Shown one piece after another: positions 10,382-49,370 of a DNA stretch of 64,000 bases. Each line of letters opens with the position of its first letter. Position 1 is the first letter of the stretch. The stretch lies in IMG/VR virus record IMGVR_UViG_3300042389_001739, positions 1 through 64,000 of that record; one strand, given 5' to 3'. Under the pieces are notes generated by a model. That model saw only the letters and a list, made by a program, of their open reading frames with translations. It searched no databases and was not told the origin of the DNA. The DNA comes from a virus. A program made the position numbers and the translations under genes.

Positions 10382-10625
10382 AAACCTGCACCACAGATAT
10401 CTCACTGTGATGCAGGTGACCCTGCCTTGCCCTGCCCTACCTTGCCCCGCCGCGCCTCGCCCCGCCAAGAGAAACCTGCACCACAGATATCTCACTGTGA
10501 TGCAGGTGACCCTGCCATGCCTGGCCCGGCCCCGCCACGCCTCGCCTTGCCCCGCCAGGAGAAACCTGCACCACAGGTATTTCACTGTGCTGCAGGTGAC
10601 CCTGCCATGCCTAGCCTTGCCATGC
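10382..10625 (-). ncRNA. Repeat array A: (GGY-NN)n tract + hairpin units, 90-nt period; putative guide-RNA array (VIPR-like)
   Basis: Constant AAACCTGCACCACAGATATCTCACTGTGATGCAGGTGACCCTGCC starts at 10382 and 10472; the copy at 10562 has three substitutions. Between them lie NN-RCC pentamer tracts (GGY-NN on minus): two full (10 GGY) and one partial (5 GGY). Confidence 0.85.
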
Positions 10626-10629
10626 TCTG

Positions 10630-11124
10630 TTAGTTTTTAGGTGGTTTAAAACATCCTACAGGTTTCAGTTTAGGCGGTGGTGCCAGATAGTCCGACTCTG
10701 TCGGATTCGAATGATGTTTAATTTCGCGTAACGATTTTTGCACCGCAACGAGCGACGCGCTGATTTTACGCGACTCAAGTTCATGTTGTCGCCGATCGAC
10801 TTCACCCAGCTGTGAAATGTCAACCTGATCCACGTGCCGTTTGCTGCGGCGGATCTTTTTTACACCCGTGCGAAATCTTTTAGCCTGGAATTCCACCGAT
10901 TCCGCGTCGGTCAAAACATAGACTGCACCTTTTACCGCACGTAAACTCCAACGCTTGCCTTGCGCCCAAAGTGCCTGCTCTAAAATTCCGGCTAACTGCA
11001 ACGCGACAAAATTCAAAGATTCAGGCGTAAAGTCTTCAACGCCAGCTATTTTGCTTACTTCGTCTGCAGGTATACAACTACCCTTTTCAAGGGTATCCAG
11101 AAATTTTAAATCGAAATTGGTCAT
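10630..11124 (-). CDS. Accessory protein of the RAMP/array locus (basic, helical; unknown function)
   Basis: ATGA-coupled (11121-11124) to the RAMP gene; stop codon abuts array A; basic stretch KRFRTGVKKIRRSKRH. Confidence 0.8.
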   Translation of the reverse strand: MTNFDLKFLDTLEKGSCIPADEVSKIAGVEDFTPESLNFVALQLAGILEQALWAQGKRWSLRAVKGAVYVLTDAESVEFQAKRFRTGVKKIRRSKRHVDQVDISQLGEVDRRQHELESRKISASLVAVQKSLREIKHHSNPTESDYLAPPPKLKPVGCFKPPKN

Positions 11125-11714
11125 GTAATCTCCTTAAAATCCGTAACCTCGAACAACCCAAATCGAGGGCGATAATCGCAAATGCCTACCGAACGGCCAG
11201 CAAGATGACAGATTCGTTCAAGATCGTCAACGTTGAAATCATAAAGATTAACTTCTATGTCTGCCGCCCACACATTAAAACGGGGACGATACCGCATAAT
11301 GCGCTTTGTCTGCACTCCAGCGCAGCGTAGATCCACGTATTTGTTGCCTGCATTCCAAAAGTCATCAATAGTTGCCTTCAAACCCACAGGGTGATCGTGA
11401 ATCAACAATGAGTCCTTTGTCACGATAACTCCAGCCAAGGCCTGCTTTTTCATCCGTAACTTAGTTGCCCCTGCGATTATCATTCCTTGTATGCAATCGG
11501 CAGTCAGTATTGGACGACGCTCCTTGTCATAGTAGAAGCCGTTGTACCAATCCAGTCTGGCAATCTCTATATAGTCTTCATCAGTCTTGTTTTTCTTTGA
11601 AGTGACTGCTTTTAACTGCTTACTTTCTTGGCTTAATGGATTAGCGGCACGTGAGGCGTGCATCAGTAGTGCACGCACCCCTTTAATAGAAAAACGAACG
11701 GAAGTTTCGGCCAT
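11121..11714 (-). CDS. Cas7/RAMP-fold RNA-binding protein (Vipr-like), 197 aa
   Basis: Start MAETSV at 11714 with AAGGA RBS. RAMP hallmarks: first strand VRFSIKGVRALLMH, ILTADCIQGMI (IPGSSLKG-equivalent), thumb IMRYRPRF, C-terminal Gly-rich loop AGRSVGICDYRPRFGLFEV. Confidence 0.8.
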   Translation of the reverse strand: MAETSVRFSIKGVRALLMHASRAANPLSQESKQLKAVTSKKNKTDEDYIEIARLDWYNGFYYDKERRPILTADCIQGMIIAGATKLRMKKQALAGVIVTKDSLLIHDHPVGLKATIDDFWNAGNKYVDLRCAGVQTKRIMRYRPRFNVWAADIEVNLYDFNVDDLERICHLAGRSVGICDYRPRFGLFEVTDFKEIT

Positions 11715-11843
11715 TAGCTGATTCCTTATTTTTGTTGCTTCCGCAGAAGCCGTTAAAATGTTTGTTTGTCCTGGCAGTAAAACTACTACCAGCACCTTAC
11801 ATTATCCGCCGCAACTGCATAGAAACCGCTGTTCTATTCAGTT

Positions 11844-12023
11844 AAACCTGCACCACAGATATCTCACTGTGATGCAGGTGACCCTGCCTTGCCCGGCCTT
11901 GCCATGCCGCGCCGTGCCTAGCCCCGCCAAGAGAAACCTGCACCACAGATATCTCACTGTGATGCAGGTGACCCTGCCCCGCCTGGCCCGACCTAGCCAT
12001 GCCTTACCATGCCCCGCCAAGCC
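11844..12023 (-). ncRNA. Repeat array B: two (GGY-NN)n tract + hairpin units, 90-nt period; putative guide-RNA array
   Basis: Same constant segment at 11844 and 11934; tracts at 11881-11928 (10 GGY) and 11971-12023 (11 GGY). Confidence 0.85.
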
Positions 12024-12034
12024 ATGTAATAAAC

Positions 12035-34761: not shown

Positions 34762-35413
34762 TGTTACTCCTAGTGGGAATATAGTTCACAATCTCATCTA
34801 CAATCCGCTCTGGTTCAACCAGCGCGTTGTCTTTAACGCAGCAAATTCGCACCGATTTTACGGTGGGTTGATATTCTATCAGACGATCCCGGTAAAAAGC
34901 ATTCACCTTTTCCAGAAGCGTCCGATCACGCTCATGCACGTCCAGTTTGCCGTCACGTTTTGCAACATTTTTTATTGCAAAATCCACCGGCATATCCAGG
35001 TAAACTAAAAGATCCGGTACGGGCAAACCAAACGTACCGTGTTCCAGTTTATCCAGGTATTTCAATAACCGATCCTGTTCTGCTCCTTCCGTTTTTGCGG
35101 CCAGATAGGCCAGGTTTGAGGCGACATACCGGTCCACAATCGCGATCGACTGTCCGTCTGCCGCCGCCTGCAGCTGATGCTGATCGGAATCAAATCGATT
35201 GATTGCCCACAGGGTACTACAAAACTCGGGAGTAATCGCCTGATGATACTTGTTATCCAAAATACGGCGAATCAACTGACCGCTGGCTGATTGATATTCC
35301 GGATACTTGACTACATACACCGGTAAACTCATTCGCTGGCGCAAACGCCACAATAAACGGTTAGCCGCGGTGGTTTTACCAGAACCGTCAATTCCCTCCA
35401 GATTAATGATCAC
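34754..35413 (-). CDS. tmk: Thymidylate kinase
   Basis: IINLEGIDGSGKTT, VDRYVASNLAY, PDLLVYLD. Confidence 0.93.
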   Translation of the reverse strand: MIINLEGIDGSGKTTAANRLLWRLRQRMSLPVYVVKYPEYQSASGQLIRRILDNKYHQAITPEFCSTLWAINRFDSDQHQLQAAADGQSIAIVDRYVASNLAYLAAKTEGAEQDRLLKYLDKLEHGTFGLPVPDLLVYLDMPVDFAIKNVAKRDGKLDVHERDRTLLEKVNAFYRDRLIEYQPTVKSVRICCVKDNALVEPERIVDEIVNYIPTRSNNG

Positions 35414-38400
35414 GCTTTGCCTTTCCGCTTACGCCATAGCTCATAGGACTTGTCCTCCAGGTTTCGTTGTGGTCTGACTTTGGTTGCCGCCACGATCGAT
35501 CGTTGCGGCTTTGTTGGGGCATCTTTGCTGTACGTTACCACACAACCCTCCGCCCCGCCGTGTCCGGTCGGCAGGCCGCGTTCTACCGCCTCGGCATAAA
35601 CTAGCTTTTCGCCCCAATAGTTCATCACCTCGGCTTCGATACCAAGATAATACGGACCGTCTCCTGTCGGAATCCCCTCCAAAGTACTGGGGTAAATCGG
35701 CACGGCCTTCCGCATGTAAGTCGGCAAAACATATTCGCAGACGTGTTTAACGTACCTGTCCGGCACTTCCAATAAAATGGCGTCATGAATCTGCAGCACG
35801 ACGTTAAAGAGATTATGCCCCTTTTTAGCCTGGCGTAGCTTGTAATCATAAAGATAAGCCAACGCACGCGACACCGCACTGGCGATCATGGACTGAATCG
35901 GGAAGTTCATGGCTTGGCGCCCAAACTCCGCCCGCAGAGCCTGATCCCGACTGGAATCCGGAAACCGCCGGAAGCGGCCGTAGCAGTTACAAAGCCAGCG
36001 ACTTTTAACTTGTTCCTGCGTGTTTTCGTCCGTGTAGGTACCTGCGGCCCGGTCCTGACACTCCTGAAAGAAAGGTCGCAGTTTAGGATACATTTCGAAA
36101 ATAGCGTTGATCACGGCTTGCGCTTCATCAACAGAAATGTCAATTTTCTGCTCCTTTGCGGCCACGGCAATCGCCTTAGCCCCTCGCCCGTAGGCGATTC
36201 CGAAAATCACGGACTTGGCCACAATCCGGATATGCTTTTTGCCAATGGCTTCCAGCCCACTTTTGGTGGGCGGACACTGCAGTTTAAAAGCAAAAACCGC
36301 CACATTGCTGTGGATGTCGTAGTAATCCGGATGATCTTCCGGCAACTGATTCCGCTGCGCGTGCGCAATCATATTCGGATCACCCGACATTACCGCCATC
36401 CCGAACAGTTCGGCGCCGACATAGTCGGCTTCCACCAGCACATGTCCCGGTGACGCTTTAAGCACGCTTCTCAGACTATATTTGTAATGCTCGCCAAGCA
36501 ACCGCTTGTAGTCCGGATCGCGTTGCTTGGAGATATTCTGCAGATTCGGTCGAGCACTGGACCAACGGCCAGTTTCCTTAGTCTGATAAATGTGGGTTCG
36601 TACTTTACCGTCATCGCAAACCAGTGAAGCCAACCCATCCTCGTATTCCATGTAACCGTCTTCGTTGTACTTTGCCTCCTCGGTCTTGTCGTCACGGCTG
36701 GGCGGACGCAGTACTGTCTTTAATACCTGATCAAGAAACCGATAATCCCGCAGCATGTCGATCAGACGCGCCTGATGCTCGTGTTCGGCGTCTTGTGCCA
36801 GTAGCGACAGCGCCTGTTTATTGGTAGAAGGCGAGTGGTTGTACTCCTGCTGCTGTCGCTTAATCTCCAGCCAGGGTCGCGGTGGTTTGGAGGTGTCAAA
36901 AACCGGGGTCAGTTTAAGCGAAGTTGCCCCTGGTGGTCGAATCTTGACCTCTTTCCCGGTTTCCTTGTTAATCCGGCCGTTGAGTTTTTCTCCGAATAAA
37001 AACTCCCGAACGTGCTGTGTCGAACGCACGTTGAACTCTGGCCAGTTAATTTCCGCTTTAAGTCGATTTTCCAGGTCTGCCCGTGCGTCCATAAACCGGG
37101 CCGTAAGAAAATCCACGCGGGAGCGGTCGACCATGATCCCGGTGCGGTGAATTTCCAACACCGCCGGGGTAGCAATCTGAGATTCCCAAAAGGCCTCCCG
37201 GCAGTTATTACCTTCGTAATCTTCATCCAGCAACAAGTCGAATTTGTAGAACAACCGCAAGGTTACGTCCGCGTCGTACATACCGTACGGCAGAAGAATT
37301 TCGTCAGGGCACATGCCGTACCCTTCGAGATCGCTGCTGCTCAGACCCTGCTGGCGACAGTAATCAATCTTCCACTTATCCAGCTCCCGGTCATAACGCG
37401 GTGCAGTGGTGTAACGCATGGCAAGCGTTTCCAGATTGTACTTGGCCGTCTCCTCGATAGCATGTGCCATCAAACCAGTGTCAGCACCGCCCTCGTATTT
37501 GGTGCGATACCAGGCGGGAACAACTTCACCCGCTTTGAAACCATCCTCCGCATACAACTTATGCAGCTTGGTGCCAGGCACCAGCGTGTAGTCGTAGAGC
37601 GGTGCCATGAAACATTCCTGCAGGTCGATGCCATAATCAACCAGCCACTCCAAGTCCGCGTTAAAGAAGTGCCCAATCACGCGTTTGCGGCGAAATTCAA
37701 CAGCACCGTTTGCATGCTCGTAACGGCCGCCCTTGAAAAAAACGTTAAGGAGTTTAATCGTTTCCTGCAAAATACCGCGTGCATTGGTTTCCTGCGGTGT
37801 GCCGCAAAAACCAAGCGTTACGTCACCCCCGGCGTCATGCAGTTTGATCCCGATCGCATGTTTTGGTCGCCAGGCAAACTGAATTGTGCGCATGTAGGTG
37901 TCGTGGTTGACCGGATGCTGACCGTGCCACTCCGCATCCACCGCAATCACATCGTCAGACTTTTCAGGATCCTGCTCGATGTTTACCAGCAGATCAAACA
38001 ACTGTGCGTGATTATCGACCACTACGTGATTGACCGTTTCGGTTTCGCCTAAATCTGCGCCTCGCAGCAAAGCCGCAAACCGGGCTAAACCACTTTCCAG
38101 CTGACGGAGTGCGGATTGATCACGGATGACCTGTTTGGGATGGACCACGGTAATGACTTTGGCTTCCTGCCAGCTGGTTTCAGCCAGTTCCGCAGTGTAC
38201 GCCGTGTTATACCGAAAAGTACCAACTTGACCCAGCATATCCGTAACGCTGGCTTGCGGACCAAGTATGGCTTTACTGGCATCTGTGCCCAGACAGAGAA
38301 TGTACTTGGGCTGTACGATTTTAATTTCCTGCATCAACAGGTGCATGCCGTCGTTGACCCAGGAAGCTTTTAACGTTGTCTTGAAGTTTGGGGGCTTAAA

Positions 38401-38976
38401 CTTGACCAGGTGTGTCAGGTAAAAGTCATCCAGCCGCTCAATCTTCAACCGCTGCATTAAATCGAACAGGAGCTCGCCGTCTGCGTCGCTGAGGCAGGCT
38501 TTATACTCCAGTTCCGTATCCCAGGGGTTTTTATTGATAATCATCACGCGTGCGGGGCGAGGTCCCGCGATGTCCAAGTGTTTAAGCGATTGCCCTCGCA
38601 AGTGACCCGGTAAAAACTTTGCGATTTTTTCCTGATGCGGTCCGACTTCCACCGGCATGGAAAAGTCGACCGTCCGCAATGCCCGCTGAATCAGGCGCTG
38701 CAAATCTTCGCTGTACTCCAGCTGCCGCACCTTTTTATCCTGCGCGTTTTTAACCTCTACAATTTTGCTCTTAGTGTCACCCAGCGCGTTGACGTGCGAA
38801 ACAAATGACGAATTGGGGGGCAGTACCGGCAGTCCAGGAGCATCCAGCGGAAAGATTGCGTCGCCCGTATGCATTGCCGCAATACGGGCCGCCTGGCGCT
38901 GCTCTAGCAGCAGCGTATTCTTTACAGGCGGTAAACTACCGTCCCGCATTCCTTTCAATTTACGTGGCGGAATCAT
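35410..38976 (-). CDS. polA: Family A DNA polymerase with N-terminal uracil-DNA-glycosylase-like domain and 3'-5' exonuclease
   Basis: UDG-like YLTHLVKFKPP...EIKIVQPKYILCLG...VVHP; exonuclease AVDAE, FNADL, YGMYD; polymerase TGRWSSARPNLQN, ADYVGAEL, AKSVIFGIAYG, NFPIQS, QIHDA. Confidence 0.95.
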   Translation of the reverse strand: MIPPRKLKGMRDGSLPPVKNTLLLEQRQAARIAAMHTGDAIFPLDAPGLPVLPPNSSFVSHVNALGDTKSKIVEVKNAQDKKVRQLEYSEDLQRLIQRALRTVDFSMPVEVGPHQEKIAKFLPGHLRGQSLKHLDIAGPRPARVMIINKNPWDTELEYKACLSDADGELLFDLMQRLKIERLDDFYLTHLVKFKPPNFKTTLKASWVNDGMHLLMQEIKIVQPKYILCLGTDASKAILGPQASVTDMLGQVGTFRYNTAYTAELAETSWQEAKVITVVHPKQVIRDQSALRQLESGLARFAALLRGADLGETETVNHVVVDNHAQLFDLLVNIEQDPEKSDDVIAVDAEWHGQHPVNHDTYMRTIQFAWRPKHAIGIKLHDAGGDVTLGFCGTPQETNARGILQETIKLLNVFFKGGRYEHANGAVEFRRKRVIGHFFNADLEWLVDYGIDLQECFMAPLYDYTLVPGTKLHKLYAEDGFKAGEVVPAWYRTKYEGGADTGLMAHAIEETAKYNLETLAMRYTTAPRYDRELDKWKIDYCRQQGLSSSDLEGYGMCPDEILLPYGMYDADVTLRLFYKFDLLLDEDYEGNNCREAFWESQIATPAVLEIHRTGIMVDRSRVDFLTARFMDARADLENRLKAEINWPEFNVRSTQHVREFLFGEKLNGRINKETGKEVKIRPPGATSLKLTPVFDTSKPPRPWLEIKRQQQEYNHSPSTNKQALSLLAQDAEHEHQARLIDMLRDYRFLDQVLKTVLRPPSRDDKTEEAKYNEDGYMEYEDGLASLVCDDGKVRTHIYQTKETGRWSSARPNLQNISKQRDPDYKRLLGEHYKYSLRSVLKASPGHVLVEADYVGAELFGMAVMSGDPNMIAHAQRNQLPEDHPDYYDIHSNVAVFAFKLQCPPTKSGLEAIGKKHIRIVAKSVIFGIAYGRGAKAIAVAAKEQKIDISVDEAQAVINAIFEMYPKLRPFFQECQDRAAGTYTDENTQEQVKSRWLCNCYGRFRRFPDSSRDQALRAEFGRQAMNFPIQSMIASAVSRALAYLYDYKLRQAKKGHNLFNVVLQIHDAILLEVPDRYVKHVCEYVLPTYMRKAVPIYPSTLEGIPTGDGPYYLGIEAEVMNYWGEKLVYAEAVERGLPTGHGGAEGCVVTYSKDAPTKPQRSIVAATKVRPQRNLEDKSYELWRKRKGKA

Positions 38977-38982
38977 TCAACG

Positions 38983-40071
38983 TTATCTCCTTTGTGCCGA
39001 AACTTGTACATTTTGCTCACGTGCCTGCTGCATAATGCACTGCCAGATGTGTGATCTTAACGACTCGCCTGGGTCACAATCACCTGGCAGCTGCACAATG
39101 CAAAATCCGGAATTTAAATCTGCGTTAAGCCTGGCGGCAATTTCTTTGAGGTTTTCTCCTTTTTGCGCATTATTGGGTTTGGCAAAGATATCCGGATCGT
39201 AAATCAACACCCCGGAATACTCGTTGAAATTTTGTTTGAACAAAGCTTGTTGTTGTGGTGTAAACGAAGCGCCCAAGGTGCAAACCGCTTGCGGACCCAC
39301 TCGCCACACGTCTGTTACGCCTTCAACGATTACACCGGTTCTGTACTGCCGAGCCTTGCCCAGATTGTACAAAAGCTGACGCCTCGGCGTACCAGGGGCT
39401 GTGTAATATTTCGGTTCGTTGGAAACTTTCCAGTCGATGTCGTAAGGCGGACGTGTCTGCCACCCTACCATTTTTTTCTGGCGGTAAATCGGGATGACCA
39501 TACGGTCTGCACAAAACGGTCGGGAACTTTCATGGCACCAGTGCACATTATAAAACCGCCCAATTTGTTCGGGATCAAACTGGCGGCTTTCTAAATAAAC
39601 TCGTGCCTTATGATCTGCCGGTAAACGATCCAGGCGAGTTACCTTGCCCGGCCAGTTCATCCGGATTGAATCCACATCGATAGTCTTACCCGGTTGAATA
39701 ACAGCCTTGTTGAGTTGAACAAGACTGTGTCCGCACAGCCATTCGTACAGCTGTTCATACGATTTGGAATCTTTGAGGTTGAGGGGACACCCGGCGTTGA
39801 AGCAGGTGGCCAGAAATTTCTGTGGTCGGCCGAATTCGTCGTCCGTACCGTAACGGTGGTTAATGTAGCAACGGTTACGCGTATCGTTGCAGAAGGGACA
39901 ACAAACCGCATAATACTCACCAGGGTGAGTGATCACGGGCACACGCCGCCCAGTAGCGATATCCAGCTGAAGTTTACGCTGCTGGTTTTCTCCTTCGTTC
40001 CGAATTTTAACGTGCTTGAACGTAGTGACGCACCGTCTGTACAGCAGAGAATTTAACGCCTTATTATTCAT
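38983..40071 (-). CDS. DNA primase (Zn finger + TOPRIM)
   Basis: CPFCND...CFNAGC, IVEGVTD, YDPD, DPG. Confidence 0.9.
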   Translation of the reverse strand: MNNKALNSLLYRRCVTTFKHVKIRNEGENQQRKLQLDIATGRRVPVITHPGEYYAVCCPFCNDTRNRCYINHRYGTDDEFGRPQKFLATCFNAGCPLNLKDSKSYEQLYEWLCGHSLVQLNKAVIQPGKTIDVDSIRMNWPGKVTRLDRLPADHKARVYLESRQFDPEQIGRFYNVHWCHESSRPFCADRMVIPIYRQKKMVGWQTRPPYDIDWKVSNEPKYYTAPGTPRRQLLYNLGKARQYRTGVIVEGVTDVWRVGPQAVCTLGASFTPQQQALFKQNFNEYSGVLIYDPDIFAKPNNAQKGENLKEIAARLNADLNSGFCIVQLPGDCDPGESLRSHIWQCIMQQAREQNVQVSAQRR

Positions 40072-41725
40072 GGAATTCTAGTTCTTCATCCGAATCCTCA
40101 TCAAACATACCGGTTTGATTAACATTTACTGCGATATTGGGCACTGCAGCGCCGACCAAGTTTGCGGTGGCTTTATCCACAATATTTCCACGGCTATCGA
40201 TGTGGTAATTATCGGGGGATAATACCAAGTTAAACTCACCGTCCACTTTGATAATCGTAGGCGGCAATCGGCGATAGCGACGATGCTTGGTACACATAAT
40301 CTGGCCCAAGCCTTCCAGGTTTAAGTTACCAACCACAAACGCAAAGCTAAGATTTTCAGCAAATGACTTGCTACCTTTCGCGTCGGTGTGATGGAGTTTG
40401 GCCGTCACGCTTTGTTGTGAATTGGCTTCACCGCTTAACTGATGCATCAGCCAGGCGTGACAGTTAAACGGTTTACAAATTTGTTTGACACACAGCTCGC
40501 CTGCCTGCTGGTAGGACCGATGTGTTTCCATGGGATTTTTTGTATTTTTAAGTTTTGAGTCGTTATCGATCATCAGGCCCAAGTAATCGATAATTACGTT
40601 CTTGATATAGTACTCCGGACCCCGTTGCTGTAGTTCTTGTTTAATCCGCTGGACGATCTCGGCCACGCCGCCGTTACCCGCCGTGGGATGTAGCGGATCG
40701 GCCCCAGAAAAATCCAAACAAAGTGTATGCGCGTTGACCCAGTGCTCGATTTCCGCGACTCGTACCCGTTCGGGTTTAAAAACCCCGTCACGAATTTCTG
40801 TGGTAAACAACCGCTGCTCGTAACTCAGCGGATCGTTTTCGTTATTGTTCAGGGCATCAATCCCGTCTAATCCCATTCGCTCCAGGCTGTAACGACTAAC
40901 TCGCGAAGAATACATGACCAACCGGTGTAGAATTTCTGGTGCCAGTGGTGCCTCGTACGTAACCAGTACGGACAACCCTTTGCGCTGATCCCAGTCCTCT
41001 GCCAGTGTGTCTTCGTAACATTGCTGTGCCGCAGTGGCCCAAAGCATTACCGCTACGGTAGTTTTACAGGTACCGTAAGGTGCCATGAAGCCGTAAGCCT
41101 CACCGGCTACCGTACCTCCACCCAAATAATTGTCCAGAAAACCCAATCCCGTGGAGCGAATCAGCATGGGATTGGTACGAGACCAATCCGGTTTCATCGT
41201 CAACGTTGGTCCGGTTTTCTCCTGCAGCAGGCCGACCAGATCCAACTTAACCTGATGTTGCTGCAACAGAAATGGCAAGTCGTCCAGCGAGGTCTGACGA
41301 ATATTCTGTTCAAGTGCCTGCCGCTCATGCTGCAGCATCAGCATGCGACCGACTTTTAGCCCAAACCGATGCATTTTTTGGCCGGTTGCCGGTGACGTAG
41401 CAAACAGCTCGGGGTCATAAGCATATTCAAAGAAGTCTTCCAGCTCTGCCCGATCCTCTACAGGAATCAGTTCAGGGTCGTCTTCAAAATAACTGGCGAT
41501 TTCCGTCCAGAGTTCAGGCTGTGCCGGTATGCTCTGATTCTCTTCGTACAAATTAATCAGTGCACGGAACAGCAATCGATTACTGTCCGTAGTGAAATGT
41601 TCAACTGTCAATTTTCCCCAGTATTCCTGGAAAAGTGCTTCATTGTGAAGCAGGATTGCCAGAAATAAACGTAAATGGGCAGTTGACAGTCTGGTTGCCG
41701 ACTGTCTCATACTAATTCCTTTCAC
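40064..41725 (-). CDS. dnaB: Replicative DNA helicase (DnaB/SF4)
   Basis: STGLGFLDNYLGGG, MAPYGTCKT, TYE, IIDYLGLM, HQL, KHR. Confidence 0.88.
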   Translation of the reverse strand: MKGISMRQSATRLSTAHLRLFLAILLHNEALFQEYWGKLTVEHFTTDSNRLLFRALINLYEENQSIPAQPELWTEIASYFEDDPELIPVEDRAELEDFFEYAYDPELFATSPATGQKMHRFGLKVGRMLMLQHERQALEQNIRQTSLDDLPFLLQQHQVKLDLVGLLQEKTGPTLTMKPDWSRTNPMLIRSTGLGFLDNYLGGGTVAGEAYGFMAPYGTCKTTVAVMLWATAAQQCYEDTLAEDWDQRKGLSVLVTYEAPLAPEILHRLVMYSSRVSRYSLERMGLDGIDALNNNENDPLSYEQRLFTTEIRDGVFKPERVRVAEIEHWVNAHTLCLDFSGADPLHPTAGNGGVAEIVQRIKQELQQRGPEYYIKNVIIDYLGLMIDNDSKLKNTKNPMETHRSYQQAGELCVKQICKPFNCHAWLMHQLSGEANSQQSVTAKLHHTDAKGSKSFAENLSFAFVVGNLNLEGLGQIMCTKHRRYRRLPPTIIKVDGEFNLVLSPDNYHIDSRGNIVDKATANLVGAAVPNIAVNVNQTGMFDEDSDEELEFHE

Positions 41726-42507
41726 ACGCCACTTACTGCAAGGATGGACTCCTCGAGAAGTCTGTTCGCCGCCGCACGAAACCCTGGTGGAATAACGCTA
41801 CCCCAGGCCTCGTCATAGAGATCCGGAAATAGTGTGTAATCCATCGCCGCCAGGAACTTGTACCGCTCGCCAAGCTTTTCCAGCTTGGCGCAGTGCAAAT
41901 CGTTTTTGTCGGTTGCCTGAATTTTCTCGCTTGTCGATATTGCCAGGCAATAGCGAAAAAGCGGTGATAACTCCAGTCGGTCATCCGCAATGGCGTAATA
42001 TACCGACAAAGAGAGCGTATGACCAGCCCCCTTTTGCAGCCGCACAACCGCCGAGCGCGCACGCTGGCTTTCGGCGATGTACTGCTGCCGCAATTCAGTT
42101 TTGCTCGCATTTACATGCTCACGCACCAGATCGAACCAGACCGAACTGGCTAACTGTTGCACCGTGGGTACGGTTAAAGCGGAACCGCGCAAAACTCGAA
42201 ACAGCAGCCGCAGGTAATACGCAGGCGCAATGGATTGCGCGCTTTGAATCTTGGCGTAAGCTTTGATCCAGGCGTTCTGCCGTTCCGGTTCTTCTGGCGT
42301 GTTAAATTGCTTTAATCCATCGAAATTGGGCGAAGGCGTGTAATGAGATACCCCGCCATGGCGAAACTGCTCTAAAACTCGCCTTTCTAAAATGTAGGTG
42401 TTTTTAAACCCTTGAATTTCCGGCGTCAGTTGGTGTGATCCGCGCAGCGATCGTTGGCCGGGCTTGGAATAAAGTCCCGGGATCGGTTGGCGTCTGAAGT
42501 TTCGCAT
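41722..42507 (-). CDS. Hypothetical protein in the replication module
   Basis: 261-aa ORF between the two helicases. Confidence 0.7.
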   Translation of the reverse strand: MRNFRRQPIPGLYSKPGQRSLRGSHQLTPEIQGFKNTYILERRVLEQFRHGGVSHYTPSPNFDGLKQFNTPEEPERQNAWIKAYAKIQSAQSIAPAYYLRLLFRVLRGSALTVPTVQQLASSVWFDLVREHVNASKTELRQQYIAESQRARSAVVRLQKGAGHTLSLSVYYAIADDRLELSPLFRYCLAISTSEKIQATDKNDLHCAKLEKLGERYKFLAAMDYTLFPDLYDEAWGSVIPPGFRAAANRLLEESILAVSGV

Positions 42508-42514
42508 AAGTCCC

Positions 42515-44011
42515 TCACATCAATTGACTATCCAGTGCGGTTGTCGGCGGCTTGATCTGCTCAAACCCCATGGCAACATAAGTCGATTCACGACCTTTTG
42601 CCTGACTGGCCATTTTTGGATTGAATTGATCCCGATAGTCATGGACGATGCCGTATTCTTTCCCTTCCGCCACGCGAGAAACCCGGCCAGGAATTTGGAT
42701 ATCACCAATAACGCTTGAACCTCCGGCGGCCCTGATCAACACAGTCAGTTGGTTAAAACTGACACCCACATTCCAAACTGTCGTACAGATTACTTTTTTC
42801 AATCTACCTTTTTCAAAATCTTGAGTCAGCTGAATTCGCCGATCGACATCCATCAGCGGTTCATCCTGACTGCAACAACCACGATTTACATAGTCTTGAC
42901 GAGTCTTTGGTGTCAGCCCGCTTTCCCTATATACAAGTGTAAACTCTGGAAGCCGCTTTTTTAACTGCATTGCGTGCTCCAGCGTATCGACAGTAATCAA
43001 CACTTGTGTATTTCGATCATAAAGCCGCGCATCCCGTGCAATCGTGTCGTTACGGAAATCATTACACCAGATACCGTAGCGTTTCTTTTCAATGTCTTCC
43101 CGTGACTCGCACGGATCGTAATCGCTTCGCACGTTGGACCAGATGACGTGTATGGGTACCACCAACTTGGCCTGCTGTGCCTGTTGATAACTCACCGAAA
43201 AAATAATCGGACCAAAGATTCCGTGCATACGGAGATCTCTGCCGTCAAACCGCTTGTCGTGACTGGCTGACAACCCAAAGTTTCGACTGTTCTGCCACCG
43301 TACCAGCTGCGCGGCAGTCCGATCGGTAGCCAATTCCTGTATTTCGTCGCCAATCATGATGTCGGCAGTAGCCGGAGAGTGGTGGGCAGAATCTGCCGTG
43401 TAACACATCACTCGCCTGTTTAATTCTTTTTTAGATCCGCCCACGATTCCAACATCACCTACCATCTGCACTAACTCCGGATAAATCCGATCTCGCAGCA
43501 CAGACACCCGGCGAGTAATCACATCAATCTTGGCACGCGGAAACAACGAAGCAATCAAGCCGATCATAAAAGATTTGCCAAAACCAGGCGCGCAATCAAA
43601 ACGGCCGCAGCGATGCGTCAACACTTTCTGCAAAAATTCAGGCTGACCTTCTCGCAGCTGGTAACCTTGAATGTTCTCCCAATGTGGTTCAAATTTTTTA
43701 GCGTCCCCTGGCATCTGATCTTTCAGGCGGACTTCGTAACCATGCTGCCGCAGCTCGTCGCGAATCAGCTTCCAAAAGCCAAACGTAGTCGTCAACCGCT
43801 GATGGCGGTCTGCCTCAAATAACACATGGTTGATGAACTCGATCGGAGACAAATTCAGCCGTTTTCGCTGTTTGGCTTCATACCCGTAGAAAATCTTCTT
43901 TTCTTGAAATGTTAAAACCGGCTGCAGAATCCGAACTATGCGGTCTGTCGTGGGTTCCAGGCAAAGCATGTTGCCATGCTTCAGCATTGTTACAACAGGC
44001 TTTGTGCTCAT
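42515..44011 (-). CDS. SF2 DExD/H helicase (UvsW-like)
   Basis: LREGQ, CAPGFGKS, GDEIQE, GLSAS, QIPGRVSR. Confidence 0.9.
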   Translation of the reverse strand: MSTKPVVTMLKHGNMLCLEPTTDRIVRILQPVLTFQEKKIFYGYEAKQRKRLNLSPIEFINHVLFEADRHQRLTTTFGFWKLIRDELRQHGYEVRLKDQMPGDAKKFEPHWENIQGYQLREGQPEFLQKVLTHRCGRFDCAPGFGKSFMIGLIASLFPRAKIDVITRRVSVLRDRIYPELVQMVGDVGIVGGSKKELNRRVMCYTADSAHHSPATADIMIGDEIQELATDRTAAQLVRWQNSRNFGLSASHDKRFDGRDLRMHGIFGPIIFSVSYQQAQQAKLVVPIHVIWSNVRSDYDPCESREDIEKKRYGIWCNDFRNDTIARDARLYDRNTQVLITVDTLEHAMQLKKRLPEFTLVYRESGLTPKTRQDYVNRGCCSQDEPLMDVDRRIQLTQDFEKGRLKKVICTTVWNVGVSFNQLTVLIRAAGGSSVIGDIQIPGRVSRVAEGKEYGIVHDYRDQFNPKMASQAKGRESTYVAMGFEQIKPPTTALDSQLM

Positions 44012-44121
44012 TTTTACCTTCCAATTGCTTTATTTTAGATGTTGAGTTACAATATGCATCGGTTGAGCGAAACGCCCTACCGCTGCACGATTATACCGTC
44101 CAGGTTTCGCCGCCTGGACGG

Positions 44122-44601
44122 CTATTCTTTAAATTTTTGACGGCGCAAATGAAATTCAACTACCTGATAATGCCCGTACTGCCCCGGCTGCCAGGGTGAT
44201 AATCCTTTGTATTTTCCTGCAATCTGTAATAACGACCAAAAATCAGCATCGTCAATTTCACTGGGCACAATGCAATTCAGCCCAATGGTTTGCCCGGTTT
44301 TAAGTGATTCATGCACACTCCACCGTTCTTTACCGTTATTGGTTTTCGGATAATAATGGCGGGCGAAGCAGTTTGGATGCAACTTGGCATCAATCTCGAT
44401 ATCCCAGCAAATTTTTTTAACTGTTTCCTGATGTCTGCCCAGCATATCCGCAGCAAGCACCATGTTGCTGTAGTGCCACGTAGGTAAAAACAAAATCTTG
44501 TTATCCAGGCTGCGCTGAAACGTATATCGGCCGTTTGGACCTTTTTGATTGCCCAGACTCGGATTTGTAAACTGGATTTTTACCGTCAGCTCACGCATCA
44601 T
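44122..44601 (-). CDS. Second small RAMP/Cas7-like protein
   Basis: ELTVKIQFTNPSLG first strand; HESLKTGQTI; Gly-rich loop AGKYKGLSPWQPGQYGHYQV. Confidence 0.6.
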   Translation of the reverse strand: MMRELTVKIQFTNPSLGNQKGPNGRYTFQRSLDNKILFLPTWHYSNMVLAADMLGRHQETVKKICWDIEIDAKLHPNCFARHYYPKTNNGKERWSVHESLKTGQTIGLNCIVPSEIDDADFWSLLQIAGKYKGLSPWQPGQYGHYQVVEFHLRRQKFKE

Positions 44602-45404
44602 CAGCTCCTGAATAACTCGGCATAGCGTTGCCTGACTTTGCGGCTCTGAAAAAACAGCGCCGGATCAAACTGAACGCTCTGGTTGTTCAGTTGTTGTAAC
44701 CAATTATAGGCCAGAAAATTTAATAATTTCCTGCACGCCTGCAGCGCATACCGAGAATTTGGCTTAGACCTGCCAAGCTCTTCCATCAACCAAGTCGTGG
44801 GTTCCATCTCCGAAAGAATGTTCATCAGCAACCGGTTACGTTTATGCTGTCCATCCGTGATGGATTTCAGTTGATTCGGTAAAACTTTGAAATAGCTGTG
44901 CAGCCGGTTGACGCGATCCGGCCGTTCCGGGTTGATATACCAGCGCGGATCACCAATTTCTGCCAGTAACTCAATCCCCAGCTCAATGGAGCGAATTCCA
45001 CTGAATTTCAGGTAACGATGCAGACAATGTTGACTGTAAAGTGCATGCAGATTATCGGTATAGCCCTTTGTTTTAAACGTATGTAACAAAAGAAAATGGT
45101 TATACACCTGACTGTCCATTCGATGCCAACACTGGGGCAAGTTGTCCTGCACCTGCAACAAAGTCAGCCGCTGTAAAATTGCGGCAGGATCGGCTTCGTT
45201 CAGCGGTTTACCAACTAATACCTGGGCCTGAATATCGTGTTGCTTGATGGCTGAATACAGGTCAAGCAACAAACGGTAGTTACAAGGTGTGCCTAACACG
45301 CGGTAAATTCCAGGCGAAAACGACGACGTAATCGCCCGAGTCAAGCCCTGCGAAGAATAGCTGTAAACTGAATCATTTGCAGCGTGCAGGCAAATTTGCA
45401 TCAT
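44601..45404 (-). CDS. IS110/Nop-domain-like protein (degenerate)
   Basis: FSGIRSIELGIELLAEIGDPRW...RLHSYF and ACRKLLNFLAYNW resemble the IS110 (Transposase_20)/Nop C-terminal region. Confidence 0.55.
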   Translation of the reverse strand: MMQICLHAANDSVYSYSSQGLTRAITSSFSPGIYRVLGTPCNYRLLLDLYSAIKQHDIQAQVLVGKPLNEADPAAILQRLTLLQVQDNLPQCWHRMDSQVYNHFLLLHTFKTKGYTDNLHALYSQHCLHRYLKFSGIRSIELGIELLAEIGDPRWYINPERPDRVNRLHSYFKVLPNQLKSITDGQHKRNRLLMNILSEMEPTTWLMEELGRSKPNSRYALQACRKLLNFLAYNWLQQLNNQSVQFDPALFFQSRKVRQRYAELFRS

Positions 45405-47500
45405 TTGCGGATTTCTATGCTTTGTTCGAACACCTCTTGAAGATCATGCACATGCGTGATGATCACCATCTGTTGCTGTGTTCCCATTTTACTGGCCAAC
45501 TGCTGCAACGCGCTATGGAAGTATGTCACGTTATCGGCATCCAGGCCACTGGCGGGCTCGTCCAGGAACAGCATGCCGACGTCATGCCCGAACACACGAC
45601 CTAACGCGGTACGGAAAGCAACCGCCAGGATAACCTTCTGTCCACCTGAGAGTTGACTGGCCTTAACGGAGTATTGCCCGGGAAATGTGACCTGGAAAGT
45701 CAAATCCTGGTCTGCCTGCACGGTGAAGGGAGTACCGAACAATTCCAGATTCTCATTAACCCCTTGTACCAACAAGCCAAGATTAGCCTGGGCTACGGCT
45801 TTTGGTAAATTGCTCCAGTGAAATAAATTACCGGCTTCTTCCACAATTTTAAGCAACTCCTGAGTTTTTCTGTGTTTCTCCAGTCGCTTGCGCAACGTGT
45901 GCAAGTTGGCTTCAATACGCTGTTTTGTCTGCTCCAGTACCCGCAGTGCACCATCCAGCTGGTTAACGGCCGCCACGGCATCGTAATGAAGCTTTAAGCT
46001 GGAGGTGGCGCTTTCCAGCTCTCTTTTTGTCGGTCGCTGTTTAATTTTCTCCTGCTGTTTCTCTAGTTCAACGGTATTGTGCTGCAGGTCACTGGTGGTT
46101 TTGGCTTTTGTTTTTTCCAGCTGTGCAATTTCCGTGTTCACGGTGGCCAGCTCTTGTGTCAACTGCTGACGATTGTTTAGAAATTCTCGGGCTTTTGTGT
46201 CGGCACCAGGATCTTCTGCACCAACCAACACATCCAGCTGCGCCCGTATTTCGTTAATCCCGGCAGTCATACGATTGACTTGCGTGTCGTAAGCCGCCTT
46301 TTCTTTGTCGTAGCTTTGCGAAAATTGCACTCGCTGCTTCAGTGCATCGAACTCCTGCTGGGTGGTTTCAATTTCCTTGAGCAGTTTCTTTCTGTGTTTT
46401 TCCGAAATTTCCTGCTGACAATACCGGCAAACCGAATCAGCCAGACTTTCGGGCTCGGCAGCTTCCAGGATAGCGCGTAGTTCGCTTAACCGCTGTGCCG
46501 CGGTCTCCCGCTCATCAGCTTTAAGATAAAGTTGCGAATCCATTGCAGGCGGGAGTAACGACTGAACGCAGTCCATCTTTTTCTGCATACTGTCAGTCAG
46601 TTCATTGATCTGGGCCTTGGCTCTACGGTAAGCCGCCACGGCATTGATCTTGGCATGCGCCAGTTCAACCTTGGGTAAAGTGCGTTCTAGTTGTGCCTGG
46701 ATCTGCCCGCAACGCCCGTACAAACTTAACCCGGAAGTTTCAAGCTGATCCGCCTGAGACTTTAACAACTTAACCTTGGTTTGCTGTGCTTCAATCCCCT
46801 GCTCGGCGTCGCAGGCGACTTCTTCACGGCGGACAATCTTTTGTAAATTTACTACCGTATCGGGTGTTAAAATCTGCTTTTTAGACTCTTCTGCCTGCTC
46901 GCTTGTTTGCCGTATTTCTGTGTTAGTCTTTTCCAGGTCGTCGGTTAACTCAAGCGAGTTATCAACGATTTCAACGCCTTTTTGCTTGTTGACGTAATCG
47001 TTGCACACTTTATGGATTTGAGCCGCAATCTCTACACCACACAAATATTGGAACGTCTTCGCTCGTTCACTATCCCGTGCGTCGATAAAGTCAAACATTT
47101 TCCACTGGTCGACAAAGACGTATTTATCGATTACGGTTTTTGAAATGTTCAGCTCGGCGACAACGGCATCGTTAACGTCGTTTGCCTTTTCATAAGTTTT
47201 TCCTCCAATCTTGAACTCGTTGCGGTTCGGTCTTAACCAGCGTGTGAGTGTAAACTCCTGGTTACGATGTATGCCCGTTAGACGGATATAACTTTCACCG
47301 CTCGAGCCGTTGGTGATGATATCGGCTTTCGTGCCGCTAAACCGCCCGAAGTCGTTTGTGAGTGCCGCGTAAATACTGTTGACTAGCGTTGACTTACCGG
47401 CACCATTCGCGCCCGTCAAACCAATAAGCCCGCTCGCCAGTTCGACTACGAGTTGTCTATGGGGACCGATATTTTGAAGTTCGACTGTTCTGATTTGCAT
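45401..47500 (-). CDS. sbcC: SbcC/Rad50-like ATPase
   Basis: GANGAGKST, CRYC zinc hook, LSGGQ, FLDEP, IITH. Confidence 0.93.
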   Translation of the reverse strand: MQIRTVELQNIGPHRQLVVELASGLIGLTGANGAGKSTLVNSIYAALTNDFGRFSGTKADIITNGSSGESYIRLTGIHRNQEFTLTRWLRPNRNEFKIGGKTYEKANDVNDAVVAELNISKTVIDKYVFVDQWKMFDFIDARDSERAKTFQYLCGVEIAAQIHKVCNDYVNKQKGVEIVDNSLELTDDLEKTNTEIRQTSEQAEESKKQILTPDTVVNLQKIVRREEVACDAEQGIEAQQTKVKLLKSQADQLETSGLSLYGRCGQIQAQLERTLPKVELAHAKINAVAAYRRAKAQINELTDSMQKKMDCVQSLLPPAMDSQLYLKADERETAAQRLSELRAILEAAEPESLADSVCRYCQQEISEKHRKKLLKEIETTQQEFDALKQRVQFSQSYDKEKAAYDTQVNRMTAGINEIRAQLDVLVGAEDPGADTKAREFLNNRQQLTQELATVNTEIAQLEKTKAKTTSDLQHNTVELEKQQEKIKQRPTKRELESATSSLKLHYDAVAAVNQLDGALRVLEQTKQRIEANLHTLRKRLEKHRKTQELLKIVEEAGNLFHWSNLPKAVAQANLGLLVQGVNENLELFGTPFTVQADQDLTFQVTFPGQYSVKASQLSGGQKVILAVAFRTALGRVFGHDVGMLFLDEPASGLDADNVTYFHSALQQLASKMGTQQQMVIITHVHDLQEVFEQSIEIRK

Positions 47501-48213
47501 TTTTTATACCTTAGAATGACTTCCCACTCCGCAACAATCGGGCGGGGAAATGAAAAGTTTGTAGGTTTTTTGCCCAGACTGGGATGATACTTTACAGTAT
47601 CCACCGGAGCATCAATTGGCACGATACGCGGATCTTCGATCGATACCATCTGCTGACCCGGCCGTACTATCAATTCGTAGGGCCGATCTTGGTTTTGCTT
47701 GGTCCAGCTCGAAATAGCCCGCCTGGCATCTTCCAGCAACCAACGCGTCGGATGCCCGGTCCAGTTTGTCCAGGTAAACCGACAACCCTGCCGAAGTAAC
47801 ACGCCTTCCCCGCAAATATCGTCTGGCTCAAAGCTGGGTAGCCGAAACCAGACGAGCTCTGTAGCGTTGGTCAGTGCCGTGTGGGTTACCATGTAAGCGT
47901 GATTTTTACTGGGCAGATGCTCCAGAAAGTGCCACGATAAGTAAACATTGCCGGGCGGTAGCTGTTTAAGCTGGCGTTCATCACTGCAGTCGATAAGTTC
48001 AAAGCAGTACCCTTTATCCGTCACGATGCGTCGATAATTTTCTGCTTGGGGTCTTTCAACCCCCAGGCAGCGGTGCGGTAACCAAAGATCGTTTGACCGC
48101 TCCGGCAAGGTCAGGGCGAGACCGCGTTTACGAAACTCGTCGATGGCGTTGCCGTGTTTTGTGCCTAAGTCCACGACGTCATAGGTTACGGTTTTGCGTT
48201 TTCCTCTACCCAT
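47446..48213 (-). CDS. Class I SAM-dependent methyltransferase-like protein
   Basis: VVDLGTKHG, SWHFLEHLP. Confidence 0.65.
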   Translation of the reverse strand: MGRGKRKTVTYDVVDLGTKHGNAIDEFRKRGLALTLPERSNDLWLPHRCLGVERPQAENYRRIVTDKGYCFELIDCSDERQLKQLPPGNVYLSWHFLEHLPSKNHAYMVTHTALTNATELVWFRLPSFEPDDICGEGVLLRQGCRFTWTNWTGHPTRWLLEDARRAISSWTKQNQDRPYELIVRPGQQMVSIEDPRIVPIDAPVDTVKYHPSLGKKPTNFSFPRPIVAEWEVILRYKKCKSEQSNFKISVPIDNS

Positions 48214-49370
48214 CGTCTCAGCGTTTGCTCCGGATCCGGGTTTTGCAAAAAAGCTACTGCCAATTTATTTGTAGCAGGTTGTACCACAAACGAATCAAGA
48301 CAGTCGAGTAGACCAACACGTTGATCGGTATCATAGCTTCCTTCCTCGGATAATTCATCCACCTGTTTTGCGCGTTTACACTTAAAGAACAGATGAGCCT
48401 GCTCGTGAAAAGTACGTTTCCAGTCTTCTACGATACTTTCTTCACCTTCCCGGTAAGTCAACTCAATTAAGGGCATGTGGAGTTCGGGAGGTAAATTCAC
48501 AGAATACGCGGAGGCTTTCTGTAACTCCGCTTCCGTGTTTGTCCGCAGCCGAAGCTGTTTTTGTAAATCCAGCTCATCAAGGGCGGCAAAATCCAGTTCA
48601 GCAACCGTAGGCACAGTTAACCGAATACATTGCCGCGAAAATAACTGATGGCTTCTCACGGTAAACTCGTGGTTATCCCCCAGAGTCAGCAACAAACAAA
48701 AATGGTTTTCAGGTTCGGCGATTGATCGCATATGTGTGCTGCCGGGAGACAACACCATAAAAGGAATTTCGTCTGTTGCCTGCAACACTTTCGATTCGTG
48801 AAAATCACCAGTAATCAAAATTTTTACATTATCCGGTACGTCGGAAAACGCGGCCTGTGGTCGAGCAAGCTCGCCCATAAAGTCCTGCCACACCTGATGG
48901 CAAACTAAAACATCAGCTGACTTGGCCAAGTCAGACTGTAAGAATACCTGAAAATTTTCCTGATTTTGATAATCACAGCCTACCAGATTCCAGCCGTTGG
49001 CTGTGGTATGTCGGCTTTCGTGCAGCCAGTGAGTCTCAGGCACCAGCTGCATCCAGGGCACGTTTTGATATTCGTGCTGACCTTGGTTGTATAGCACATC
49101 GATGCCGTGCTGCTGCAGCTGCTGGACTCCTTCCACCAGTTTCTGCACCGGCAACGACACATTACTCTGCTTGTCCAGAATATCGCCAGCCAGGATCACA
49201 CCGTGTGCCTTAGCCGCGATGGCCGCCGCCACAATCTGCTGCCAGGCAAAAAAAGAATCGCCCTCTATCGGTCGATGCCGCCAAACCCGCGTGGATAAAT
49301 GCAAGTCGCTGGCTACAATGTAGCGGCGACGATTTTCCGGAGAAACAAAAGAACCAGTCTTTATAGCCAT
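48186..49370 (-). CDS. sbcD: SbcD/Mre11-like metallophosphoesterase nuclease
   Basis: SDLH, AGDILD, GQHE, CHQ, GDFH, PGS. Confidence 0.9.
   Translation of the reverse strand: MAIKTGSFVSPENRRRYIVASDLHLSTRVWRHRPIEGDSFFAWQQIVAAAIAAKAHGVILAGDILDKQSNVSLPVQKLVEGVQQLQQHGIDVLYNQGQHEYQNVPWMQLVPETHWLHESRHTTANGWNLVGCDYQNQENFQVFLQSDLAKSADVLVCHQVWQDFMGELARPQAAFSDVPDNVKILITGDFHESKVLQATDEIPFMVLSPGSTHMRSIAEPENHFCLLLTLGDNHEFTVRSHQLFSRQCIRLTVPTVAELDFAALDELDLQKQLRLRTNTEAELQKASAYSVNLPPELHMPLIELTYREGEESIVEDWKRTFHEQAHLFFKCKRAKQVDELSEEGSYDTDQRVGLLDCLDSFVVQPATNKLAVAFLQNPDPEQTLRRWVEENAKP

Follow-up and report, generated by a model that had tools for sequence, protein, structure and literature searches.

A small RAMP-like gene in a phage replication operon

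The stretch of viral DNA analysed here, 64,000 nucleotides long and covering positions 1 to 64,000 of the IMG/VR record IMGVR_UViG_3300042389_001739 (hereafter the window), encodes on its minus strand, in the open reading frame listed at 44122..44601, a protein of 159 residues that we refer to as the mini-RAMP. Directly upstream and on the same strand is a TasR/IS110-like gene of 267 residues (44601-45404), called the partner in the following; directly downstream, again on the minus strand, is an SF2 helicase resembling XPB-II (42515-44011). The stop codon of the partner, TGA, and the start codon of the mini-RAMP, ATG, share a single base, the A, and a spacer of 110 nucleotides (44012-44121) separates the mini-RAMP from the helicase. 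A preliminary description of this DNA had placed the gene between the SbcC region and the SF2 helicase with no GGY array nearby; this is indeed its location, with one gene, the partner, between it and SbcC, and the only YNNGG/GGY arrays in the window, at 10382-10624 and 11844-12026, are about 32 kb away. The three motifs quoted in that description are present as well: ELTVKIQFTNPSLG at residues 4-17, HESLKTGQTIGLNCIVP at 97-113 and AGKYKGLSPWQPGQYGHYQV at 128-147. The open reading frame is a real gene, because it has homologues at 50-70% identity, falls into a family of 198 clusters, and keeps a constant operon position in 87 loci.

Predicted fold of the mini-RAMP

The structure of the mini-RAMP was predicted with AlphaFold2 using 25 homologues, which gave a model with a predicted local distance difference test score (pLDDT) of 93 and a predicted template-modelling score (pTM) of 0.84. 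In the model, a first strand (residues 2-11) is followed by a long irregular segment, a helix (40-54), a short strand (65-71), a hairpin (79-100), a strand (105-113), a second helix (118-131), a glycine-rich loop (132-144) and a last strand (145-152); by DSSP, the elements follow the β-α-β-β-α-β order of the ferredoxin-like/RRM core. Helix 2 and the last strand are joined by the glycine-rich loop, whose sequence is KGLSPWQPGQYG, and residues 129-143 read G-K-Y-K-G-L-S-P-W-Q-P-G-Q-Y-G.

The best matches in a Foldseek search of the PDB were type VII Cas7, Csm3 and Cmr4, with an E-value of 1e-6 and a probability of 1.0. VIA, a structure aligner that is independent of Foldseek, superimposed 153 of the 159 residues on Cmr4 (6s6b_I; Z 11.2, root-mean-square deviation 3.4), and its top 32 entries are CRISPR RAMPs without exception. 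Cas7-type matches have Z of 9-11, against 6-8 for Cas6. A structure search of the ESM Atlas led to a PF03787 RAMP cluster (TM 0.73), and the best matches in BFVD were viral RAMP proteins; among all the structural matches, the mini-RAMP is the smallest RAMP-like fold. The preliminary description had proposed a RAMP/Cas7-like fold, and a ferredoxin-like RRM/RAMP fold is what the model, together with its Cas7-family matches from both aligners, points to. Searches against Pfam, NCBIfam and PADLOC gave no match at E<=1, and this includes the Pfam RAMPs PF03787; since the curated models give no match, membership of the RAMP superfamily rests on fold and profile-profile evidence.

Relationship to Vipr

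Vipr is a minimal phage RAMP that polymerises along vrRNAs, which consist of YNNGG units, and silences the DNA of competing elements, and it was proposed in 2026 to be the ancestral RAMP lineage that gave rise to the CRISPR backbone proteins (bioRxiv 10.64898/2026.04.26.720920 and 10.64898/2026.04.26.720927). The window has a Vipr of its own at 11121-11714 (phrog_4652, E-value 1e-36), with a G-loop, GICDYRPRFG, that contains the published contacts C..DYR. BLASTP detected no similarity between the mini-RAMP and this protein. Comparison of the two families with hhalign gave 89.7% over the C-terminal 38 columns when the alignment of the mini-RAMP family was shallow, and 95.7% (E-value 1e-8) over 147 columns spanning both proteins with 112 diverse mini-RAMP sequences. 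A profile search of all PDB sequences had the Vipr of Escherichia phage SUSP1 (36pp_D) as its best match, at an E-value of 0.023, and returned no Cas7. The one match of the mini-RAMP in PHROGs, a weak one, is again to phrog_4652 and at the C-terminal loop; three tested family members give similarly weak C-terminal matches (E-values of these weak matches 0.006-0.02), and so do the genomes of four relatives. By sequence profile, the closest described relative of the mini-RAMP is Vipr, and the earlier comparison of its glycine-rich loop with that of 11121..11714 is borne out by both hhalign alignments.

In SUSP1 Vipr, the residues that read GGY are H17, R138, C173, D177, W178 and R179; D177 reads G1, R179 holds Y3, and W178 stacks (bioRxiv 10.64898/2026.04.26.720927). 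When the mini-RAMP is aligned to 36pp, D177 corresponds to P136, which is nearly invariant across the family, R179 to Q138 and C173 to K132; the stacking aromatic residue W178 is kept as W137. The Vipr strand histidine is aligned by hhalign to N18. Two or three of the GGY-reading residues are thus replaced in the mini-RAMP. The hhalign alignment also has a gap of about 40 residues in the mini-RAMP at the helical insertion of Vipr, and residues 12-39 of the mini-RAMP are modelled as an extended loop with short bridges and no helices; as modelled, the protein lacks the α-helical bundle that in Vipr cradles the skipped target base. The hairpin at 79-100 is basic and aromatic and looks thumb-like in the model, and hhalign sets the RxRPxF thumb of Vipr against a gap. 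The TasR/IS110-like kind of partner is not named among the vap types in the text of the VIPR paper. The mini-RAMP locus is not a VIPR system, since it has no bundle in the model, GGY-reading residues are replaced, and it has no array nearby.

Family distribution and conserved residues

A word-indexed search found 43 close homologues of the mini-RAMP at 50-70% identity, none of them annotated, and an exhaustive profile search (E<=1e-3) extended the family to 198 representative clusters at 50% identity, all of them viral and all unannotated. Nearly all members are 140-200 residues long, and the nearest clusters in the ESM Atlas are 96-100% viral. The carriers are uncultured freshwater phages that belong to one large clade and have genomes of roughly 150-235 kb. 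Searching 50,697 phage records by tblastn with the mini-RAMP and with a member of a second, deeper clade gave no match; the polymerase of the window matches cultured phage records at only 24-31%, and with no close polymerase match the phage therefore has no cultured relative. The sequencing runs that contain the locus are lake-water DNA metagenomes only, with no RNA run among them. For two distant family members (P0150 and P0185), no viral loci were recovered. The only cellular-genome contigs with a mini-RAMP are L179 (JBDNHI010000020.1) and L180 (JBDNFH010000093.1), from metagenome-assembled genomes binned as Gemmataceae and Candidatus Nanopelagicales; the two probably come from phages and ended up in these bins by chance, and they are at best a weak hint at the hosts.

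Of 112 family sequences, every one has G133 and G143, and nearly every one has G129, S135, P136, H97 and E98; W66-D67 is kept near-invariantly in both main clades. The near-invariant polar positions (H97, E98, S135 and W66-D67) suggest that binding is not purely generic and that there is a defined ligand or partner.

Operon position and conservation

For comparison of gene order, we used 87 loci anchored on the mini-RAMP, 25 from the clade of the window (the near clade) and 62 from the second, deeper one (the far clade). In all 87, the order is SbcD-SbcC-[267-residue TasR-like]-[RAMP]-SF2 helicase-(261-residue family)-DnaB-primase-PolA, and it persists where DnaB and SbcC fall to about 25-30% identity; the SF2 helicase is the next gene downstream of the mini-RAMP in every one of them. 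A UvsX-like recombinase belongs to the same gene block. Synteny in related phages had been put forward in the preliminary description as a check, and the operon position proves to be constant in 87 of 87 loci. As a measure of constraint, we took bits per residue relative to the proteins of the window. In the near clade, the mini-RAMP scores 1.11, with 1.16 for PolA and 1.16 for the SF2 helicase; in the far clade, the values are 0.51, 0.53 and 0.54, respectively. In both clades the mini-RAMP exceeds DnaB, primase and SbcCD. Its conservation equals that of the DNA polymerase.

In the window, the conserved block begins at the SbcD/Mre11-type nuclease (48186-49370, minus strand), which was assigned with NCBIfam Mre11 models and by synteny. 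A 255-residue minus-strand protein of unknown function separates it from the SbcC/Rad50-type ATPase (45401-47500, minus strand; NCBIfam Rad50 models, E-value 6e-29, and synteny). Beyond the partner and the mini-RAMP follow the SF2 helicase (Pfam Helicase_C; phrog_16, DNA helicase; best PDB sequence match XPBII, E-value 4e-5), a 261-residue protein with no family match (41722-42507), a DnaB-type helicase (40064-41725), a primase (38983-40071) and a polymerase of 1188 residues whose closest phage match is annotated as DNA polymerase (35410-38976), all on the minus strand; the run of minus-strand genes is unbroken from the primase at 38983 through SbcD/Mre11 at 49370. The replication block also includes a thymidylate kinase (34754-35413, minus strand) and the UvsX/RecA-like recombinase (31534-33066, minus strand), with a 555-residue protein that has no family match between the two (33094-34761). 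GC skew of a complete relative is monotonic and indicates no replication origin near the locus.

The TasR-like partner

The partner was analysed with 33 homologues from the loci, and its AlphaFold2 model has a pLDDT of 91.7. VIA aligned 226 of its 267 residues to the TIGR-TasR structure 9mty_B (Z 11.8), and matched TasH through the C-terminal domain only (residues 101-265, Z 8.3); the IS110 bridge recombinases ISCro4 (Z 7.9) and IS621 were matched as well. Foldseek returned 9mty_A with an E-value of 1.2e-3 and a probability of 1.0. According to the model, the N-terminal domain of the partner is RuvC/RNase H-like and its C-terminal domain helical and Nop-like, which is the TasR/IS110 architecture. 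In most loci, it ends within about 10 nucleotides of the mini-RAMP start.

Among the 33 homologues, the N-terminal RuvC-like domain has no invariant or nearly invariant Asp or Glu; D152, in a later DPRW motif, is nearly invariant. TasR has four conserved acidic residues near the catalytic metal (PMC12045711; bioRxiv 10.64898/2026.09.09.750476), and because the N-terminal domain of the partner has no conserved acidic residue against these four, its nuclease has very probably lost its activity. TasRs with a dead RuvC domain are known; they have arrays and act as RNA-guided repressors (PMC12045711; bioRxiv 10.64898/2026.09.09.750476). No TIGR array for the partner was found in the window or in a complete relative. 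Xu et al. describe a divergent clade of compact, array-less TasR in dense viral genomes and leave the source of the guide open (bioRxiv 10.64898/2026.09.09.750476); the partner may belong to this divergent tas clade. The word RAMP occurs in neither of the two TIGR-Tas papers, and "replication" does not occur in the one that was searched for that word.

Arrays and the VIPR locus of the window

The window Vipr is part of a type II-like VIPR locus at 10382-12026 that consists of Vipr, an accessory gene and two arrays. The accessory gene (10630-11124, 164 residues) is coupled to Vipr, and the arrays (10382-10624 and 11844-12026), made of 90-nucleotide units with YNNGG tracts, flank it. In this phage group the locus is sporadic; besides the window, it is found in L001 and G009. 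It looks like a separate, sporadic cargo.

An array was defined as a run of at least five YNNGG units, with degenerate NNNGG or NNNNG forms outside the search. By this definition, 24 of the 25 near-clade loci have no YNNGG array within 10 kb of the mini-RAMP, and none is present in nine of ten large whole records that carry it, including records that are 94%, 93% and 100% complete. In two of the 87 loci, the mini-RAMP has a Vipr homologue at a distance of no more than 10 kb. When five of the nine array-less records were scanned with phrog_4652, no canonical Vipr was found: the sole match was the mini-RAMP itself, and one record had no match at all. Tandem Repeats Finder revealed no non-coding array of any period in the complete relative of 204.8 kb. 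The large tandem repeats of the complete relative G008, at 159.5-160.3 kb, 168.1-169.2 kb and 197.7-197.9 kb, are coding only, with collagen-like (period 9/18) and pentapeptide-repeat (period 15) units. In the window, there is no tandem array near the mini-RAMP and no CRISPR-like tandem repeat anywhere, and an Rfam scan found no family.

A candidate antisense small RNA gene in the spacer

The spacer between the mini-RAMP and the helicase contains a candidate gene for a small RNA (sRNA) of about 78 nucleotides, at 44060..44137 on the plus strand and thus antisense to the operon; it is supported by a promoter, a covarying terminator and a covariance model. The promoter is σ70-like, with the -35 box TTGCTT at 44025-44030 and the -10 box TACAAT at 44048-44053, and the pattern TTGnnn, 16-18 nucleotides, TAnAAT is kept on the antisense strand in 13 loci; a consensus promoter scan of the spacer made no call, since the -35 box fits at only 3 of 6 positions. 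The predicted RNA has a 5' hairpin, a single-stranded CCGCUGCAC motif, a terminator stem (44096-44121) and a U-run, and its 3' end overlaps the stop codon of the mini-RAMP. The stem shows compensatory changes in 8 of 10 pairs, and on the plus strand this stem and the T-run after it make up an intrinsic terminator. We had considered this hairpin downstream of the gene as a vrRNA- or tigRNA-like ligand; its loop has only about 8 nucleotides, neither box C/D nor a pentamer periodicity is present, and the antisense RNA has its terminator here. The covariance model (R1) finds one site per locus, in the clade of the window only (18 of 81 sources). In many second-clade loci, the helicase start codon directly follows the RAMP stop codon; because these loci have no spacer at all, the sRNA cannot be the general ligand of the family. 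In the clade of the window, it is a candidate ligand.

Each subclade has a different word of 9-14 nucleotides that is common to the spacer and to the 150 nucleotides before DnaB, the 14-mer being that of L005. In the window, it is the 9-mer GGCGGCGAA, which is common to the terminator region of the sRNA and the DnaB leader at 41765-41773 (40-48 nucleotides before the start) and has only these two occurrences on the minus strand of the whole window. As a duplex target of the sRNA, the DnaB leader ranks 1-3 of about 800 target windows in six loci (L002, L004, L009, L011, L012 and L024); in our window, it ranks 39 of 808. We considered whether a second GTGYAGCGG site before DnaB repeats a promoter; the site is coding sequence, namely that of the GFRVAA motif, and is part of the likeness between spacer and DnaB leader. 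The GTGTAGCGG word of the sRNA spacer recurs in the sequence coding for the C-terminal GFRVAA motif of the 261-residue protein, and since this word sits in both, coding constraint and RNA complementarity are entangled.

Proposed function of the mini-RAMP

Based on these data, we suggest, with a probability of about 0.5, that the mini-RAMP binds nucleic acid in a non-programmable manner and acts together with the TasR-like partner in recombination-dependent replication. It is inherited within the replication/recombination operon, and not as part of a programmable guide-RNA system. Single-stranded nucleic acid would be contacted by the RRM face, by helix 1, by the thumb-like hairpin and by the G-loop, in which W137 is kept, and by analogy with Cas7 and Vipr this binding would probably be oligomeric or cooperative. 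Together, the two proteins may keep hold of a non-programmable substrate, or present it, in the course of recombination-dependent replication, alongside Mre11/Rad50, the UvsX-like recombinase and the helicase; candidate substrates are an R-loop, primer RNA, an intermediate of single-stranded DNA, or one fixed small RNA. A domesticated RAMP with a role in replication or recombination was among the possibilities raised in the preliminary description, and is the best fit among them to the operon position, the polymerase-like conservation and the lack of an array.

Several observations weigh against this proposal. In a separate set of 80 loci anchored on the SF2 helicase alone, 78 have the TasR-like gene and 65 the mini-RAMP, which is missing from the other 15. 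A family-profile search of eight whole records that lack the gene at the locus, two of them 91% and 93% complete, found no copy elsewhere; as a control, the same search found one copy in each of two carrier genomes. On the helicase tree, which comes from a quick maximum-likelihood search and has several long branches, presence of the mini-RAMP must change 7 times, and at least 4 of these changes are forced by well-supported branches. The gene is missing in some lineages, and it is therefore not essential to the replication module. In addition, a conserved sRNA gene adjoins the mini-RAMP in the clade of the window. It is also possible that there is a guide that is encoded elsewhere or has an unrecognised form, since the mini-RAMP and its neighbour both descend from guide-RNA-binding families.

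The mini-RAMP is nonetheless present in both deep halves of the helicase tree. It is ancestral to the group, strongly constrained where it is kept, and dispensable in some lineages; given its repeated loss, its role is therefore helpful but not indispensable. The placement of the gene in a core replication module, as the preliminary description had it, accordingly holds in part: the fixed operon position and the polymerase-like conservation speak for it, while the absence from 15 of 80 loci and from eight whole records speaks against it. In seven of the eight RAMP-less records, the TasR-like gene is beside the helicase, and in the eighth it is about 1.9 kb upstream. In three loci (L011, L077 and L106), the mini-RAMP is kept, the TasR-like gene is missing and SbcC is directly upstream; because these keep the mini-RAMP alone and other loci keep the TasR-like gene alone, the two genes can be lost separately. 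One locus (L135) has neither gene within 4 kb.

A possible but rather unlikely extension of our proposal is that the mini-RAMP joins the dead TasR-like protein in a new kind of two-protein ribonucleoprotein with a hard-wired RNA that marks specific DNA or mRNA of the phage's own, and so controls the initiation of replication or the expression of replication genes; this RNA could be the adjacent antisense sRNA, a nascent primer or an R-loop transcript. A narrower version, in which the two proteins bind the antisense sRNA, find the DnaB leader with it and tune its expression, is one we regard as improbable. Judged by comparison between genomes, the sRNA gene is real, with its promoter, its covarying terminator and one copy per genome at this spot, and both the subclade-specific words of 9-14 nucleotides and the high rank of the leader in six loci fit such a role; against this stand the rank of 39 and the single weak 9-mer in the window, the restriction of the sRNA as modelled to 18 of 81 sources, the many second-clade loci that have no room for it, and the partly coding nature of the common word, and an ordinary antisense RNA needs no RAMP. 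The RNAs of the 10-12 kb locus fare worse as ligands. The mini-RAMP could conceivably be a second subunit of the VIPR system of the window that loads on the GGY/NN vrRNAs in trans, given that the window carries Vipr and arrays and that the two proteins are homologous. However, of the large related records, nine of ten have no YNNGG array (three of these are at least 93% complete) and none of the five scanned has a Vipr; the proximity to a Vipr homologue in only two of 87 loci, the replacement of the D177 and R179 contacts and of the strand-histidine position, and the absence of the bundle that holds the target strand add to this. Use of the vrRNAs in trans, one of the suggestions of the preliminary description, is already largely refuted by this distribution; it is unsupported as a general mechanism, and we put next to no weight on it.

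A Cas6/Cas5-like protein that processes RNA or binds a handle, for example at a hairpin of the operon mRNA by way of His97-Glu98, seems very unlikely as well: the two residues are nearly invariant, Cas6 structures are among the fold matches and a covarying hairpin lies 3' of the gene in the clade of the window, but the Cas7-type matches are clearly better, many loci keep the gene without the hairpin, and the hairpin makes better sense as the antisense RNA's terminator. We give similarly little credence to an anti-defence decoy, that is, a Cas7 or Vipr mimic that poisons class 1 CRISPR complexes of the host or caps the Vipr filaments of rival phages. Such a decoy would be consistent with a solitary, phage-encoded RAMP that keeps the filament-type fold and the G-loop aromatic residue with the guide-reading residues gone, and with its repeated loss, which is like that of an accessory gene; it is at odds with conservation at the level of the DNA polymerase, unlike that of arms-race genes, and with a fixed place in the replication operon and coupling to the TasR-like gene across very distant phages, and there is neither a PADLOC match nor a link to defence or anti-defence islands. 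An unconventional single-stranded DNA-binding protein (SSB) of the replisome, finally, is highly improbable. A filament-type fold for binding single strands would suit a replication operon, and three genomes that are at least 93% complete (G001, G006 and G008) have no match to the PF00436 SSB family or to the gp32 family, although no positive control accompanied the gp32 search. Many phage SSBs cannot be recognised, which counts against this explanation; moreover, some lineages keep the rest of the replisome and lack the gene, and the conserved polar residues of the mini-RAMP suggest a specific rather than a generic ligand.

If the two-protein ribonucleoprotein does exist, housekeeping in virus replication was, or became, a task of guide-RNA scaffolds, and the bundle-less RAMP could stand near the ancestral state of Vipr and the CRISPR RAMPs. 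More generally, reduced versions of two unrelated families of guide-RNA holders, Vipr and TasR/IS110, are vertically inherited operon neighbours here without a guide array; should their targets be replication intermediates or one fixed RNA, guide scaffolds can be put to non-programmable housekeeping, or may originate from it. This would bear on the origin of RAMPs, and would make the question of Xu et al. about array-less TasR testable. The fold family and the nearest relatives (VIPR, 2026) are known already; in the literature searched, we found no description of an array-less, bundle-less RAMP that is fixed in a replication operon with a TasR-like partner.

Comparison with known systems

The partner resembles TasR of the TIGR-Tas systems in its RuvC-like and Nop-like architecture, and differs from it in lacking the acidic tetrad. 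With the divergent tas clade, it has in common a densely packed viral genome that leaves no room for an array.

The Cas7 backbone subunits (Csm3, Cmr4, type VII Cas7, Csf2 and the domains of gRAMP) share with the mini-RAMP the layout of RRM, predicted thumb and G-loop, and are its best structural matches, with about 150 of the 159 residues aligned at Z 9-11. There is, however, no significant sequence similarity, and the mini-RAMP is smaller than any of them. Csm3 and Cmr4 have a catalytic Asp after strand 1, whereas the mini-RAMP has no invariant acidic residue in 12-39; it is also encoded without a CRISPR array or other cas genes.

The system that comes closest is Vipr, as represented by the type II protein of Escherichia phage SUSP1 (PDB 36pp). 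Both are phage-encoded minimal RAMPs with a single RRM core and, in the mini-RAMP by prediction, a thumb-like hairpin, and they have a common G-loop, AG-x3-G-[LIV]-x-x-[WYF]-x-P...[FY]G-x-[FY]-x-V. The mini-RAMP is about 40 residues shorter and, as modelled, has no α-helical bundle; the GGY-reading Asp, Arg and His positions are replaced, and it is found without a vrRNA array and apparently without a vap gene of the kinds in the text of the VIPR paper. Whereas Vipr is sporadic, the mini-RAMP is fixed in a replication operon, strongly conserved, and paired with a TasR-like protein.

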